Shown here: positions 2,998 to 62,994 of the stretch, one piece after another | Layout: each line of letters begins with the position of its first letter | Numbering within the stretch: position 1 is the stretch's first letter | Assembly: GCF_006345805.1 (NCBI RefSeq) | Contig: NC_043010.1 | Location: forward strand, 51,336,001-51,400,000 | Direction: 5' to 3' | DNA: 64,000 bases | Source of the DNA: Octopus sinensis | Taxonomy: Eukaryota | Notes under the pieces: model-generated | Seen by the model: the letters and a program-made list of their open reading frames with translations, nothing else | The model's database searches: none | Told to the model about the DNA's origin: nothing | Translations under genes and position numbers: made by a program

Positions 2998-4940
2998 TTA
3001 TTTCCAAAACTTATTCAATAAAATCAATGTAGTACTAAAAATGGCGGCTCCCAAAACAAAGTAACTGATATTTTGGGGAGTGAAATGACGTTTAAAGTCT
3101 ATCTTTGAGGCAGGTTCTTCCTTTTCTTTGTTCTCTTGCTCTGCCTTTATCTGAATAGCTGCTTCAATAGCTGAGTCGACAATTTCAGAAGCAGATTTCT
3201 CTATGTGACTTCCGTGTTCATCTTTAATTAGAGATTCTTCAGATTTACTGAGGCTTTTATCTAGAATATCTTGAGAGTCAGCTTCGAATACATCAACGGT
3301 ATTCGCAGAGTCCATCACTTCAGCTTCACACTTGCTTTCAAATCCTGAATCCAAAGCACTGGCCTCTTCAGGCAAGATTTTCTGAGCCACCAAGGTAGGT
3401 GTTTCTCTATCATGTGATGTTTCAGAGAGAACTTTCTTATGCTGAGTTTCCTCGGGAACTGTAGTCTTAGTTTCAAGAGATATTTCATCCTGGAAGCCAT
3501 CTTTTGGACTCGTTTTTTCAGAATGATCCCTAGCAGTATCCCCAGACATTTGACTCTGAAATGCAGCCACACTGTCTCCTTTACTCAATTCAAATGACCC
3601 ACCAGTTTTCACTACGTTTACCTCAGAATCGCTTAAAGCATCTGATGCAATATTTTGGAAGCCACTTTCAGGAACTGTTGGCTCCAAAATTTCTGCTTTA
3701 ACATCGGAATTATCCTCGATATGGTGATCAGGTGTTGAAGTAGTCTCTACTGATGGTTTAACACTTTCTGATGGAATTTCCGAAATGGCTTTAGCAACAT
3801 TTTCAGCATCAGGTGTAATAGTTTTATCAGAGTCTTCAAGAACATCATTGGAACTTGACAATTTACTTTCTAATAAGACACTGTTTTGGTTTATGGTATC
3901 AGTTTCATTCAGTTCCTCAGCTTCTTTAGGCTTCTGTGTGTTGGAGTAAGCAAAAGGACTCGTGCTGCCGGTCTGCGGAAGTGAGGAACTGGACTTTGAA
4001 CCAGAAACAGAGTCCTTAGCAAAAAATGGGCTTGAAAGCGATGTATCAGAAGAACTACTGTTGGAATAAAAATTAGACATTTCAGGAGTTTCCTGCTTGG
4101 TAGATGATGATGACGACGATGATGATGGCAATGACTCCTTTGAGTAACTAGGAGATGTTGAATAATCTGGAGTTACCATTGAACTAATGACTGAACTTTG
4201 TGGAAGCAGTGGTGTCAAAGTTGGTGAAACAAGATTCCTATCAGATTGAAGGTCATCTCTGACGGACCAATTCTCAGGAACTTGATTAAAATTAGGGATA
4301 TTAAGTGTTGCTTCATTCCTCTGTAGAATTTTGGATTCATATTCTGTATCTTTGCTCACTTGGGACAGATCCTCACCAAACAGCTCTTCTGAAACTGCTT
4401 CTGTCTTTTGTTCATATTTACTATCGCTATCACCACCGGAAGAACTATGATTTGAGGCAGCATCATTGTAGTGAGACACATTCTTAGCATCAGTATCAAG
4501 GAAGACAGCATTTGACATGAATCTATGCTCTTCTAAATCATTATTATTGTCTGCATCAAGCGATGCAGTGTTTATTGTCTTGTTGCTGTCCAATGTATGT
4601 TTAGCATCCAGGGCACTGTCTTTACCTGCCTCGTGCTGAATATTCTGGAATTTGCTGTTGGGCAGCAAGCCAGGAGCAGAGTTTAATTTCTGCCCATCGC
4701 CTACCAGAGGTTCCATGTTATTTCCTTCGACAAATGGAACAGAGTATGGCATGTGTTCACTTACATGAGTGTTGTTCAGTACCTCTTGTGCATCCTGCAT
4801 CTTTCCAAGTGCAATTAACAAAGTATCTATATCAGATTTAGTGTGAGTAAGCCAGTTGTAAATAAGATTAACCAGAGAGCTACCTGAATCAGTTTTCAAG
4901 CTTATGTCTTCAAGTTGTGATACTTCTTCCAAACTGTAGC
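2998..4940 (-). CDS. MAVS: MAVS-like gene, last coding exon: C-terminal half of Death domain, long Ser/Thr/acidic disordered linker, C-terminal transmembrane anchor, stop
   Basis: Long ORF. Acceptor ttttatgtag|GC at 4941/4940 (phase 1). Begins GYSLEEVSQLEDISLKTDSGSSLVNLIYNWL...DIDTLLIALGKM (death-fold pattern). Ends KRHFTPQNISYFVLGAAIFSTTLILLNKFWK* (hydrophobic helix flanked by basic residues). Confidence 0.88.
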
Positions 4941-4970
4941 CTACATAAAAACAAAAAGAAAAAAGAAATT

Positions 4971-5135
4971 CCATTAATTCATCTTAAAATGCTGGATCTT
5001 TCTGAAACCTATTATCTTAAAATACTAGATTTTTCTAAAACTCACCAATTTATCTTAAAATACCAGTTCTTTTTTTAAAAACCATTAATTTATCTTAAAA
5101 TGTTAGATCTTTCTAAAACCCGTTAATTTATCTTA
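4971..5135. repeat. Degenerate ~40 bp tandem repeat, about 4 copies, next to the last-exon acceptor
   Basis: Recurring ttaatttatcttaaaat.ctagat.tttctaaaac. Confidence 0.6.
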
Positions 5136-5648: not shown

Positions 5649-6249
5649 ATAAGGCTTGAAATTTTGTGGGGAGAGGGATAGTTGATTACCAGTTGAGCCC
5701 CATTGCTCAACTGATACTCATTTCATCAACCCCCTAAAGAATGAAAGGCAAAACTGACCTCAGCAAAATTTGAACTCAGAATGTAAAAACATGAAATGCC
5801 GCAAAACATTTTGTCTGGATGGTGAAAACCCTGATGGCAGTAGCAGCACAGAGTGGTAATGTCTTGGCAATAAATGCCAGATAATTAACAAAGCATCATA
5901 GTAACAGTGGCTGTGAAGGTAAGATGCTGACATACAGAGGTAACACATGGTAACAAAGGTTGCCAAGATTTTTGTTATATAGGACACAGTTTATCTTAAA
6001 TAGGCAAAAATAAAACAGAAAATGTTTTATACTTAAAGCATCAGCAAGGGAGCCATCTCACAACCAGATCTTAATGTCAAAGTATGTTAACATTTTTTAA
6101 AAATAAACTCCATGGAGAAAAATTTGTTGGAGAAGAGGAGTCTTTGTCTGTCTCTCTCTCTCTCTCTTGATACTCTACATCAAATGATAATCAGTAATTT
6201 TTAAAAATCTATCACCAAACTAGTTAATTAACTGCTGTGTACTTTACAA

Positions 6250-18015: not shown

Positions 18016-19399
18016 CTCAACTTTATAATCATAGTACTTACATCTACTTTCTATGCTGGCATGGGTAAGAAGAGTCATTACAGTTTGAACTAGCTCTCAT
18101 TCAGAGTTTATTGTCCTAAATGGGTTGGGAGAGAATTTATCACCAAAACATTATTAACCTTTTGCCTAACCTGTGTATCATATGTGACACACAGGACATA
18201 TTTTGTTGGTGTCATGCATCAGATATGACACACTTTCCCAATTTCTTTTCAACCACTGCAGTAATTTGAGACTTATGAAAAGGAAGGCTTTATATTACTC
18301 AGAACGTATGAAACAAGGACTAATTTAAAAGTCTTCAAATAAAGAAGTTTAGGATAAACTTACTAAGATGCTTTGGACAAATGGTTAAATATGGCAGGGT
18401 ATCTACAATGAGGTGTCCTTTCTATCACTAATCACTTTACAGAGCTTACTAAGAACATTTTATTTTGGGAGCAGTAATAGAGAAGTTATGTCCTCCACAA
18501 GACAAGACTAAGGGACTTCATGAACCGGCACTGTCTTCACTTATTTGCCAAATGTTCAATTTCTCCCTCTTGGGGTTCGTAGTCTTGTCAGCTGCACAGT
18601 AACCTCATTAGCGTTGGTGACATGGAAAATGCACTTAGTACACAATGTAAAGTGGCAAGTACTACGAAAGGCATCTAACCACAGAAACCATGCTGAAGTA
18701 GATACTGGCCCACAATGCAGTCCTTGGACCCATGGACGTTAAATGATGATGATGATGATGAGCATTTAGGATCATGTTATGCAATGTCCCCCTGCCCACT
18801 TTTTTAAGAAGGAGGATGTAATTTGAGGGTGTTTGGTTGCAGTTTCTAGAAGGCTGACTGCATGAAGGCTCTCTCTCACTGACATGTTAGTTGTAATGTA
18901 TGGAGGTAATGATAGAGTGGGAGTGTTTAAAACAGCCAATGGTTGTGCAGGGCCAGAGGTGCAAAGGCAAAGTTCTAATTTGGAAGTAAGAAACAGGTCA
19001 TGCAAATTGGGTATGGATGAATGGTTGCTGGAAATGAAAAGTTCTGTATAGGGAGAATGGCAAAGAATTTTGCTTTTGCACCGTTTGAGCCAACATGAGA
19101 GAATAACGAAGGTTACAGATCAAAGAAGAGTGTTACAATAGGTAGATAAGCAGTTATTAAATTCTAGAGAAGAGCTACAGCTAAAACTAGTTATTAAACA
19201 AACACTAGAAAAATGGCTGGGAGGAATAGGTGAATGAATATTAAGTGAACACTTCAGAATAACTGAACAATGAACAGCTAGTGAATACTTTAGGAACATG
19301 CAGTGAAAATTTAGTGAACAGAACCTCAGCTAAAACCAGTTATTAAACAAATACTGGAGAAGTAGAGGTGAGGAATAGGTGAACATTTAGTGACAATTT

Positions 19400-20180
19400 C
19401 AGAATAATTGAACAATATATGGTCGGTGAACACTTCTGAATTACTGAACAATACATGGTCGGTGAACACTTCTGAATAACTGAACAATACATGGTCGGTG
19501 AACACTTCTGAATAACTGAACAATACATGGTCGGTGAACACTTCTGAATAACTGAACAATACATGGTCGGTGAACACTTCTGAATAACTGAACAATACAT
19601 GGTCAGTGAACACTTCTGAATAACTGAACAATACATGGTCAGTGAACACTTCTGAATAACTGAACAATACATGGTCAGTGAACACTTCTGAATAACTGAA
19701 CAATACATGGTCAGTGAACACTTCTGAATAACTGAACAATACATGGTCAGTGAACACTTCTGAATAACTGAACAATACATGGTCAGTGAACACTTCTGAA
19801 TAACTGAACAATACATGGTCAGTGAACACTTCTGAATAACTGAACAATACATGGTCAGTGAACACTTCTGAATAACTGAACAATACATGGTCAGTGAACA
19901 CTTCTGAATAACTGAACAATACATGGTCAGTGAACACTTCTGAATAACTGAACAATACATGGTCAGTGAACACTTCTGAATAACTGAACAATACATGGTC
20001 AGTGAACACTTCTGAATAACTGAACAATACATGGTCAGTGAACACTTCTGAATAACTGAACAATACATGGTCAGTGAATACTTCTGAATAACTGAACAAT
20101 ACATGGTCAGTGAACACTTCTGAATAACTGAACAATACATGGTCAGTGAACACTTCTGAATAATTGAACAATACATGATT
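19400..20180. repeat. 36-bp minisatellite, about 21 copies
   Basis: Unit gtgaacacttctgaataactgaacaatacatggtc(a/g); no spacers. Confidence 0.97.
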
Positions 20181-20974
20181 AAAGAACACTTTATAAACAT
20201 TTAGTGAACAACTTTCATAGACAGCAATACAAATTACTAGAACACATTTCACACATATGCAATAATCATTTAAATTTAGCGATCATTCTAACAAAAATTT
20301 GAAATGGTATACATTGTTAAAGCGTTTTGAACAACTAGTAAACACCTGTAGTTGACAGTTAATAAACATTTTAGAATAAAGCCAGCGGGGAAGCATCATT
20401 CAAATGTTACAACAATGAAAGGAATCTGTTCGGAGACCAGAAGAAAGTTGTAAATTCATTAACTGATGATTAATACACACACAGCTTATACTTGTACTAC
20501 TACTACTACTAGAACAATAAAAACATAGGCACGGGCATGGTTGTGTGATCCAGAAGCTCACTTTGCAACCATGTGGTTTTGGGTTCAGTCCCACTGCATA
20601 GAACCTTGGGTAAGTTTCTTCTACATGGCCTCAAGCTGACCAAAGCCTTGCGAGTCAATTTAGTGGATGGAAACTGTGGATGCACATCATGTGTGTGTGT
20701 GTGTCTGCATATATAAATAAATATATAGATATACAGTAGGGGCCATAATATAAGGGTCAGTAAGAACAAGTGTATTGAAATAGTTATTATAGAAGATTAA
20801 CAACACATTGAGACTTGATATTTTACACATATTTAGATATATCTAATATCTACCTTTCGTAAAAATTTCAAGTGAATGGAATAAATATTTTGTAAGTTAT
20901 GAGGAAATAAACAAATAATCTTCTAAACTGCAATGGCCAAAAGTTAAGGGTCACTTAGAAAAAAATGAACTACT

Positions 20975-23412: not shown

Positions 23413-23883
23413 CACACACACTCATCTATCTCTAGTCAGACACACATGCACATTTTTATATTTATATTTTGTGTGTATTTATATTTATACACACACAATA
23501 AAGATATAAAATAAAGCATGGACAACTACAACCTTCATTTTGTCCTTCACTGAAGACAACAGGGCAAAGTCAGCCCCCATTGGTGGATACCACTGGTAAA
23601 CTTACTAGAAAAATAGTAGCCTGGCATTGATGCATGCATGTGTGAATATGCGCTATATGCAAACGTGTGTATACACATATATAAACAATTGCGTATCATC
23701 ATCATCGTTTAACATCTGCTTTCTATGCTAGCACGGGTTGGACGATTTGACTGAGGACTGGTGAACCAGATGGCTGCACCAGGCTCCAATCTGATCTGGC
23801 GGAGTTTCTACAGCTGGATGCCCTTCCTAACGCCAACCACTCCGAGAGTGTAGTGGGTGCTTTTACATGCCACCGGCATGAGG

Positions 23884-24298
23884 GCCAGTCTGGCAGTACT
23901 GGCAACGGCCAGTCTGGCAGTACTGGCAACGGCCAGTCTGGCAGTACTGGCAACAGCCAGTCTGGCAGTACTGGCAATGGCCAGTCTGGCAGTACTGGCA
24001 ACAGCCAGTCTGGCAGTACTGGCAACAGCCAGTCTGGCAGTACTGGCAACGGCCAGTCTGGCAGTACTGGCAACGGCCAGTCTGGCAGTACTGGCAACGG
24101 CCAGTCTGGCAGTACTGGCAACGGCCAGTCTGGCAGTACTGGCAACGGCCAGTCTGGCAGTACTGGCAACGGCCAGTCTGGCAGTACTGGCAACAGCCAG
24201 TCTGGCAGTACTGGCAACAGCCAGTCTGGCAGTACTGGCAACAGCCAGTCTGGCAGTACTGGCAACAGCCAGTCTGGCAGTACTGGCAACGGCCAGTC
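23884..24298. repeat. 24-bp minisatellite, about 17 copies, abutting an RTE-like 3'UTR
   Basis: Unit gccagtctggcagtactggcaac(g/a). Confidence 0.95.
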
Positions 24299-24729
24299 TT
24301 TTACTTGTTTCAATCATTAGACTGTGGCCATGCTGGGACATCACCTTCAAGAATTTTGGTTGAATGAATCAATCCCAGTATTTCTTTCTTTTTATTTTTT
24401 TTTAAGCCTGATACTTATTACCTATTTCTTTATTGCCCACAAGGGGCTAAACACAAAGGGGACGAACAAGGACAAACAGATTAAGTTGATTACATCGACC
24501 CCCAGTGCGTAACTGGTACTTAATTTATCGACCCCCAAAAGGATGAAAGGCAAAGCCCACAGATAATTTTTTCACTATAGACCTTAATGGTCATAAAGGC
24601 ACTATATCAGTGGATAGATTAAAAAAGGCCTTCATAGAGAAAACTGTCCCTGTTCCCACTGCAGACGACACACACACACAGCATTACAAACACGGCCCGC
24701 TCACCCACCTTCACATTCCATGACTACCA

Positions 24730-60867: not shown

Positions 60868-62253
60868 TGTGTGTGTGTGTGTGTGTATGTATATTGTTTC
60901 ATTTGTTTCAGTCATTTGACTGCGGCCATGCTGGAGCACCGCCTTAAAGGGCTTTAGCCGAACAAATCGACCCCAGGACTTATTCTTTGTAAGCCTAACA
61001 CTTATTCTATCGATCGCTTTTCCGAACCGCTAAGTTACTGAGGCATAAACAGACCAGCATCGGTTGTCAAACGATGGCGGGGGGAGGCACGTGTGTGTAT
61101 ATACACACACGCACACACACACTGGCAATGCTGGAGCACCACCTTTAGTCGAGCAAATCGACCCCAGGACTTATTCTTTGTAAGCCTAGTACTTACTCTA
61201 TCAGTCTCTTTTGCCGAACCGCTAAGTTACGGGGACGCAAACATACCACCATCGGTTGTCAAGCGATGTTGTGGGGACACAAACACACAAACATGTACAC
61301 ACACACATACATACATATATACGACGGGTTTCTTTCAGTTTCCGTCTACCAAATCCACTCACAATGTTCTGGTCGGCCCGAGGCTATAGTAGAAGATACT
61401 TGCCCAAGGTGCTACGCAGTGGGACAGAACCCGGAACAATGTGGTTGGGAAGCAAGCTTCGAACCACACAGCCACGCCTGCGCAATGTCCACTTTTCCAT
61501 GCTCGCATGGGTTGGATGGAATCTGATGAGGCGAATTTTCTACGGTCGGACGCCTTTCCTGTCGCCAATCCTCACAAGTTTCCAGTTAAGGTAATATTTC
61601 GTATAAAAATACTGGGAACGAAGAACACTCGTTTACATTTGTCTTGTGATACTAAGTCAAGGAGACAGTAACACACACCGCTTACGTCTACGAAATCCAC
61701 TCACAAGGTTATAAAAGAAGACACTTGCCGAAGGTACCACGACGTGGGATGGGTGTATATGTATGTATGCTCTTTTACTTGTTTTAGTCATTTGACTGCG
61801 GCCATGCTGGAGCACCGCCTCTAGTCGAGCAAATCGACCCCAGGACTGATTCTTTGTAAGCCTAGTACTTATTCTATTGGTGTCTTTTGCCGAACCGATA
61901 AGTTGCGGGGACGTAAACACCGCAGCATCGGTTGTCAAGCGATGTTGGGGGGGGGGGTACAAACACAGATACACAAACACATATATATACGACGGGCTTC
62001 TTTCAGTTTCCGTCTACCAAATCCACTCACAAGGCTTTGGTCGGCCCGATGCTATAGTAGCAGACACTTGCCCAGTGCCACGCAGTGGGACTGAACTCGG
62101 AACCATGTGGTTGGTACGCAACACACAGTAATACCTCACTTTAAGAGGACCCACCTTACAAGACCCCGAGTTTGCGAGTTTTATTATAAGCTTTTCAAGC
62201 AAAAGATCGAAATTTTGAACGAAGTGCAAAAGTTTCTACTGCCATAACAAATA

Positions 62254-62338
62254 GACGGAGGTAAAGGATACGCACACCACCCGTTTTCGGCGTAACCCTA
62301 ACCCTAAACACCGGGTGTGCGTATTCTTTACCATCACC
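62254..62338. mobile_element. 85-bp mini-MITE with (CCCTAA) core
   Basis: ggtaaaggatacgcacacc / ggtgtgcgtattctttacc; flanked by aacaaata / aacaaatg. Confidence 0.65.
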
Positions 62339-62405
62339 AACAAATGCTTCTGCGTTTTACTGAGAAATTTATAGAGCGCGAAAAAAGGCTTCTAAGTGAA
62401 CAAGA

Positions 62406-62795
62406 GGTTAGCCATGATAAGATGGCTTCTATACTTTACATTATCGAGCGATTACTGTTTCAATCTCATTCTGAGATTTAATTATGCTTACTGTTCGTTT
62501 TTCGACATCAGTGGCAGATGCCATTAGAAAAACATATCTATTTGCAAAGGAGCCTTCTCTTTCATCGCTACCTGGTGGTTACCGCCCGTTGACGAGGGAC
62601 AAAAATCCCGAAACTAGTTCGAGCGTATCACTCAGGCTTGCGAGGAAGGGATGGCCTCCCTTTGCAAATACTCCAAGGACACAGATATTGTGTCTAAAGC
62701 CAGCTAGAGACGAAGATCTCTTGGGGCTATAAAGCTACAGTAACACCCCCTCCCCAATGTGGTTAGCCATGATAAGATGGCTTCTATACTTTACA
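62406..62795 (+). mobile_element. Hammerhead-bearing 355-bp retrozyme/Penelope-like unit with 35-bp perfect terminal direct repeat
   Basis: ggttagccatgataagatggcttctatactttaca at 62406 and 62761; hammerhead motif at 62583-62625. Confidence 0.75.
62583..62625 (+). ncRNA. Minimal type-I hammerhead ribozyme motif, U3:G8 variant
   Basis: cgcccg-TTGACGA-ggga-caaaaa-tccc-GAA-ACTAGT-T-cgagcg. Confidence 0.65.
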
Positions 62796-62994
62796 ATTCT
62801 AGGCTTGTTTTTTAGAAAAGAAATGCACAGGTGATGGTGCGCGCGAGATTAATGCGAGTGAAAGGGATTCCAAAAACTATTATAAAAATATTTTTTATTA
62901 TAAATGATCTTGACATTCTTTTTATTTTACATAAATTATTCTTGATTCTACAATTGTTTTATTGGAATTTATTTACGAGGATTATAAATGTTAT

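Follow-up and report, generated by a model that had tools for sequence, protein, structure and literature searches.

Retrozymes of corals, mussels and the axolotl occur as circles, with Penelope-like elements (PLEs) named as candidates for their mobilisation (Cervera and de la Pena 2020, PMC7229834). As described there, these non-LTR retrozymes consist of tandem units of 170-400 bp (350-390 bp in mussels) with a type I hammerhead, a short palindromic stem III and no ORF. For Xenopus retrozymes, cleavage has been reported in one of nine dimers tested (Li et al. 2026, bioRxiv 10.64898/2026.07.22.740005). PLEs themselves form partial tandems and inverted 5' copies, with a tail that is often present at one end only (Craig et al. 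2021, PMC8557442). In vitro, this tail lies between two internal start sites of reverse transcription (Frangieh et al. 2024, PMC11167929); a dimeric form is predicted for the PLE protein, and mutation of the hammerhead still allows insertion (PMC11167929). Two further systems are close to the one described here, namely the newt satellite 2, a hammerhead repeat of ~330 bp for which an snRNA-type Pol II promoter is reported (Coats et al. 1994, as cited in PMC2220036), and the LINEs of the Tx1 clade, the known targets of which include U2, microsatellites, satellites and also DNA transposons (PMC4494074, PMC4640811).

The locus analyzed here occupies positions 62406-62795 (+ strand) of the window, that is, of the whole 64-kb stretch of Octopus sinensis DNA. 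It shares the unit size, tandem organization, hammerhead type, palindromic stem III and lack of an ORF with the retrozymes of coral, mussel and axolotl, and its family unit of 357 bp lies within the range of the mussel units. The insertion, as delimited by family matches and by empty paralogous sites at which the flanks are joined, comprises one unit of 355 bp, 2 bp shorter than the family unit, plus 35 bp, about 1.1 units in total. An earlier note on this DNA had described a perfect 35-bp direct repeat 355 bp apart, a hammerhead between the repeats and several hairpins downstream, and all three descriptions were confirmed. The repeat is exact at both positions (62406-62440 and 62761-62795), with no equal match in 100 shuffles. 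The hammerhead is of type I and lies on the + strand (62571-62641; Rfam HH9, 33.2 bits, E 2.1e-6, predicted cut after 62619). Both hairpins that had been named are present in the predicted fold, which has a z of -4.98, with the opposite strand of the element also scoring z -4.05. Hairpin A (62677-62695) is kept in sister families, whereas hairpin B (62698-62728), which has an internal loop, is the best-conserved motif of the wider group. No ORF of at least 120 aa was found over the element. The short unit, present both in tandem and dispersed, the lack of an ORF, LTR, PBS or PPT, and the presence of one type I hammerhead per unit (with an Rfam score below gathering) are those of a non-LTR retrozyme. 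Judged by these testable sequence features, the locus belongs to a protein-free non-LTR retrozyme family, of which it is a dispersed copy.

A search of the 2.72-Gb genome yielded 116 matches to the element in the best 40 of 2,003 candidate regions, and the full-length matches were 96-98% identical. This is a young tandem family, with at least 233 hammerhead copies. The exact pattern of hairpin B, which represents the wider group, gave 5,670 matches, and the reversed control gave none. Tandem arrays of 2.5 and of 3.9 units are present, the latter being the longest. The earlier note had proposed a "monomer plus a bit" of the kind that reverse transcription around a circular RNA of ~355 nt, a retrozyme, would leave. 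This was corroborated as regards a tandem hammerhead retrozyme of which more than one full unit was copied, and the 35-mer recurs inside other copies. A very young sister retrozyme of 350-353 bp, with a canonical hammerhead and multi-unit arms, was found at three loci (L359, L363, L364); its start sequence is changed and might allow it to escape the LINE discussed below.

The 35-mer could in principle be a host target-site duplication (TSD) flanking an element with fixed ends, and PMC7229834 does mention animal retrozymes of which some have long TSDs. However, the retrozyme interrupts an older dispersed repeat, the left half of which lies at 62339-62405 and the right half at 62796-62960, and in 28 of the 38 paralogues of this repeat that were fetched, the flanks are joined without the 35-mer. 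Moreover, the 35-mer recurs inside other copies of the family. The joined paralogues and the internal 35-mers refute the TSD reading, to which we assign a negligible probability. The doubt of the earlier note about so long a TSD was thus borne out, and the finding that it had named as fatal to its own proposal, a 35-mer restricted to this locus as host flanking sequence, was looked for and not obtained. Comparison with the paralogues indicates that at most 4 bp (ACAA), which overlap the end of the element, were duplicated upon insertion. No orthologous empty site was found among the assembled contigs compared. The older repeat as a whole extends over 62190-62405 and 62796-62960, is 80-88% identical to its paralogues, and received a second insert besides the retrozyme. 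This is a multicopy, MITE-like palindrome of ~77 bp with TAACCC repeats in its loop (62256-62332; 1,797 candidates in the genome), which the contigs skip.

The ends of the family copies were mapped in 100 segments from 65 loci, which were chosen by position among the first 100 hammerhead matches, with four overlapping loci dropped; exclusion of three ends that abut a LINE left 97 3' ends. The 3' ends are concentrated at two sites ~47 nt apart, with 49 at the short site (S, unit positions 28-42), 36 at the long site (L, positions 76-89) and only 12 elsewhere. Of the 85 ends at S or L, 48 run into (TA)n or TA repeats. The 5' ends, by contrast, are scattered over unit positions 5-355, and the median length is ~290. 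Thus, the circularly permuted ends expected by the earlier note were not observed, since only the 5' end varies and 85 of 97 3' ends lie at two fixed sites. Its proposed survey of genomic copies was half successful, with tandem arrays of up to 3.9 units but no permuted ends. Similarly, the opposite case that it had considered, in which all copies share fixed ends, holds for the 3' side, with its two sites, and fails for the 5' side. The window copy ends at S, where the second 35-mer (62761-62795) terminates and where reverse transcription is likely to have started, and begins at unit position 1 with the first 35-mer (62406-62440), its variable 5' end, which contains a 6-bp hairpin (62410-62427). 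The "tail" between the two sites (62441-62490) contains another hairpin (62462-62478), and the L site, at about 62488-62490, is internal in this copy. The 35-bp overlap arises because the copy starts at position 1 and ends at S; its length is simply where the 5' end of this copy stopped.

At 27 of the 65 loci the insertions are inverted, and their ends follow a strict rule. One arm ends at S and the other at L in 22 loci, S+S and L+L do not occur, and in five loci one arm ends elsewhere. If the arms were independent, this S+L excess would have a p of ~1e-7, with the proviso that two of the loci may be one duplication. A score-ranked set, which partly consists of the same loci, showed S+L in all 11 resolvable cases among 16 inverted loci. 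A further 18 inverted loci, drawn from the first 100 hairpin B matches, mostly from sister families and read by eye, gave S+L in 16 of 16 resolvable cases, with two that could not be resolved. Across insertions split by a LINE, the pairing was observed in 7 of 7 resolvable cases. L+L ends were found in one sister locus (L321). The two arms of inverted insertions agree at 290 of 300 subtype sites, where ~104 differences would be expected if they were unrelated, and often the same region was copied; successive tandem units agree at 93 of 103 such sites (~34 differences expected). Because both arms share subtype variants and obey the S/L pairing, we infer that one RNA, or units of one transcript, was primed once per site on opposite strands and copied from two fixed starts.

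Two fixed 3' ends with a tail between them (85 of 97), 5' truncation, partial tandems, inverted 5' copies and the lack of a regular TSD are features of the PLE type. As far as PLEs such as Poseidon PAc, Neptune and Naiad are described in PMC11167929 and PMC8557442, the likeness extends to an optional, often single-ended tail, AT-rich or (TA)n targets and an internal start of reverse transcription. In contrast to PLEs, the retrozyme has no ORF, and its tail is ~47 nt long rather than 30-40 nt. We consider it probable that the locus belongs to a dispersed 357-bp hammerhead retrozyme with a variable 5' end, two fixed 3' ends and a likely internal snRNA-type promoter, which is likely inserted by a PLE from a circular or, less likely, an uncleaved tandem RNA. 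In this mechanism, two hammerheads in a tandem transcript would release one unit, which would be closed into a circle. A Penelope-like RT/endonuclease would then nick AT-rich DNA. Priming would take place at S for the majority of single insertions, and at both S and L, on opposite strands, for the inverted ones. Reverse transcription would run for a median of ~290 nt and sometimes go past one round, and the "unit plus a bit" would result from such overrun.

The tail, the inversions and the (TA)n targets, as PLE features (PMC8557442), together with the resemblance of retrozymes to pLTRs in Xenopus (bioRxiv 10.64898/2026.07.22.740005), would also suit the reading that the repeat is no more than an autonomous PLE's pseudo-LTR and the copies are 5'-truncated remains of that PLE. 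This is very unlikely, given that copies of more than one unit continue into another unit and never into a PLE frame, and that the 3' regions of the PLE families sampled in the genome are unrelated to the retrozyme. No sequence homology was found between the retrozyme and these sampled PLEs. In 70 stretches around GIY-YIG matches, a small part of 5,029 candidates, neither BLAST nor a DNA profile detected an autonomous PLE homologous to the retrozyme, and the profile matches within these stretches looked like independent retrozyme insertions. Among the copies examined, none had an RT+GIY-YIG ORF joined to the repeat. The retrozyme moves like a PLE but is not one. Neptune-type PLEs with long RT+GIY-YIG frames (775-781 residues) that end in (TA)n are present in the genome, and one of them has a minimal U3/GUU hammerhead near its 3' end, as read by eye. 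In a young Neptune-type family (L061-L066, L068, L072, L073), a 479-residue frame overlaps the 781-residue RT+GIY-YIG frame, GATTGG/TGACGTC repeats lie downstream, and a minimal hammerhead is found ~70 nt from the (TA)n end. The 3' region of a second Neptune-type family (775 residues; L067:3742-6818 on the minus strand, L074) contains a hammerhead that is likewise minimal, and palindromic.

The state of the hammerhead bears on the template. In the window copy, stem I is formed by 62583-62588 and 62620-62625, the core UUGACGA lies at 62589-62595, stem II pairs 62596-62599 with 62606-62609, and the palindromic stem III is at 62613-62618. Stems I and II have a high predicted probability, whereas stem III forms only as a palindrome, as in hammerheads that act as dimers. 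The score of 33.2 bits is under the Rfam gathering score of 52, and the 64-kb window contains no match at gathering level. The core is non-canonical, with U3 in place of C3, a GUU cleavage triplet and a C-A mismatch in stem I. U3 and the mismatch are the state of the whole 357-bp family, and genome-wide, 229 of the 233 exact-pattern hammerheads have GUU and four have GUC, whereas canonical cores are found in the sister families, which are 70-84% identical. PLE hammerheads with U3 have been reported to combine it with A8 (PMC4209133), while U3 is combined with G8 in the retrozyme. The hammerhead and the two downstream hairpins keep 92% of their pairs, with compensatory changes that affect stems I-III, across nine related sequences, the relatedness of which inflates the control. 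Because of U3, GUU (229 of 233) and the stem I mismatch, the hammerhead of this family may cut slowly or not at all.

A linear cleaved monomer could be rejected as the template because the 5' ends are not piled up at the ribozyme cut. A circular RNA is plausible: rolling-circle copying fits most of the tandem and arm data and would explain how promoter-bearing copies of more than one unit are regenerated. Successive units diverge by 2.3%, the same as inverted arms, compared with ~4% between loci. The predicted fold of the natural unit as a circle is stable (z -3.3). Assembled contigs from four runs carry the family and the joint that returns from 62760 to 62406, a joint that tandem DNA yields as well. 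Eight of the ten unit disagreements stem from two loci with mixed units (L020, L179), and a subtype switch between units cannot be produced by one monomer circle. Because of these mixed loci and the weak-looking hammerhead, a linear route has to be weighed, in which the same element and a Penelope-like enzyme would use a linear tandem transcript that stays uncleaved and comes from a small number of long arrays, with the hammerhead as a weakened relic and no circle. The non-canonical core is fixed in the family, PLE insertion in vitro was unaffected by hammerhead mutations (PMC11167929), and the arrays of 2.5 and 3.9 units could serve as sources. However, the linear route would lose one unit in each generation, and only 2 of ~90 family loci have arrays of source length (~650 bp or more). 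Furthermore, in the young sister with the canonical core, both sides of one inverted insertion (L359) carry multi-unit arms that are nearly identical, and related animal retrozymes accumulate as circles according to PMC7229834. On balance, the linear route seems unlikely, and we favor the circular template.

The retrozyme likely carries an snRNA-type promoter. In the genome, 20 of the 25 U2 loci and 18 of the 20 U1 loci, the upstream DNA of which is otherwise unlike, have the motif ATCAGT at -57 to -61; the U1 loci were found with the Rfam model, as a pattern search for U1 gave none. The retrozyme has ATCAGTG 59 nt ahead of ATCG, as in these promoters. In the window copy, the PSE-like motif ATCAGTGG (62507-62514), for which a promoter function is proposed, lies 57 nt upstream of the predicted transcription start at about 62564, where Pol II would initiate. 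Sister lineages have the motif at -56 to -60, with some distances counted by hand, and one has it as ATCAGCG. The match is only 6-7 nt long, and its background is 3 in 1438. The start region, too, is reminiscent of an snRNA gene, as the LINE target TTTCATCGCTACC is similar to the 5' end of U2. LINE-free 5' ends do not clearly pile up at the predicted start, and a slight excess nearby consists mostly of LINE junctions. A distal promoter motif common to U1 and U2 was not convincing, with TGATTAGC in 3 of 25 U2 loci. The promoters of a U1 cluster (L285-L302) have a perfect octamer ATGCAAAT ~15 nt past the PSE-like motif, and the retrozyme has octamers with one mismatch at -24 and -259. The newt satellite 2 is a similar hammerhead repeat in an amphibian (PMC2220036), but the octopus copies are mostly dispersed and truncated, and the promoter proposed here is deduced from the U1/U2 genes of the same genome.

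The predicted start coincides with the target of a resident LINE (62560-62577; duplicated upon insertion and empty in the window copy). Three sampled loci are split at the same base by an insert of 4-5.5 kb, a young LINE of 5.5 kb that would insert ~14 nt past the predicted start. It encodes an ORF1 with a zinc knuckle and an ORF2 with AP endonuclease, RT and zf-RVT domains; it is called L1/Tx1-like on the basis of these domains and its best solved relative, human L1 ORF2p (E 1e-31). ORF2 is uninterrupted (1134 residues) in 1 of the 19 copies checked. Among the best 30 of 40 scored LINE 3'-end matches, 29 are at the retrozyme site, and the one exception lies at a U2 gene's 5' end. The sequence next to these 30 ends is the target of the 357-bp family in 19 cases, a duplicated target followed by another LINE in five, and a sister retrozyme in four; of the remaining two, one has 10 target bases, with the retrozyme on the 5' side, and one is a confirmed U2 snRNA gene. 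The LINE begins at its own first base in each of the 23 loci examined; its TSD is 18-21 bp long where both sides are intact, and LINE-TSD-LINE arrays are present. Of four older relatives, one lacks the 5' 827 bases. Tx1L, Keno and Tx1-Mar share these ORF1 and ORF2 domains, and also the single fixed site in a multicopy target and tandem re-insertion (PMC4494074, PMC4640811); unlike them, the octopus LINE uses the predicted start of a hammerhead retrozyme as its target and, in one case, the very 5' end of U2. At that U2 locus, ~15 nt of retrozyme are found at the 5' junction, as expected if the LINE RNA begins at the retrozyme start. This copy sits in a U2 snRNA cluster (L249, U2 at 5890-6083) and parts the gene from its promoter. 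The target site of Keno lies inside U2. On the reverse strand of another locus (L325), the LINE 3' end and 10 target bases precede the 3' portion of a different PLE-like RT/endonuclease frame, which has a (CT)n end.

Because the LINE is nearly always found within the retrozyme and one copy has the uninterrupted ORF2, it might itself be the mobiliser, or the two might move as one composite. This is highly improbable. The LINE copies diverge by 0.5%, compared with 2.8-4.3% for the retrozyme halves around them, which belong to different subtypes, so that the LINE must have inserted independently into existing retrozymes. In addition, the LINE has its own duplication, first-base start and LINE-TSD-LINE arrays, whereas retrozyme copies lack poly(A) tails and LINE-type TSDs. 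Rather than moving the retrozyme, the LINE likely borrows its promoter. All 21 LINE-bearing family copies retain at least 188 bp of retrozyme upstream, compared with 10 of 61 LINE-free targets (p 2e-12), which suggests that an active promoter, or a further element upstream, is required by the LINE. With ~175 bp of retrozyme upstream of the target, the window copy is LINE-free. Copies of a second, related LINE family sit at the same site (L228/L254, L322, L324, L348), sometimes in mixed tandem with the first.

Compared with the retrozymes of PMC7229834, for which circles were shown, the octopus family is known from genomic DNA and has the U3/GUU core. The two-site 3' ends, the S+L pairing, the PSE and the resident LINE are not among the features that we find described for those retrozymes. 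No literature was found on Tx1 together with a retrozyme, or with a satellite and a hammerhead, in a search that lay outside most subscription journals and Repbase. The features that stand out are the S+L rule and the link between LINE and promoter, rather than the 35-bp repeat. Tentatively, and with somewhat less than even confidence, the data may be read as a stack of three layers: a ribozyme-bearing circRNA element that mimics an snRNA gene, with PSE and U2-like start, would be copied from one circle by a two-headed Penelope-like enzyme and parasitised by a LINE that homes on promoter-intact copies at their start. Under this reading, the short+long rule would be strict because the enzyme primes once at each of the two sites. 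The rule, with both arms derived from one type of template, predicts a dimeric enzyme and two starts on one RNA. The junctions provide direct genomic evidence for the PLE mechanism and touch on two open questions, how animal retrozymes move and how PLEs make inverted, tailed insertions. The retrozyme also represents a class of LINE target absent from the literature found and probably a compact case of promoter piracy, and a LINE that is young, full-length and site-specific is also of interest for targeted insertion.

Elsewhere in the 64-kb window, a 661-residue open frame with a hydrophobic end (2998-4983, minus strand) is probably the long last exon of a host gene, and long minisatellite arrays at 19326-20282 and 23723-24368, with units of ~33 bp and ~24 bp, appear as repetitive open frames.
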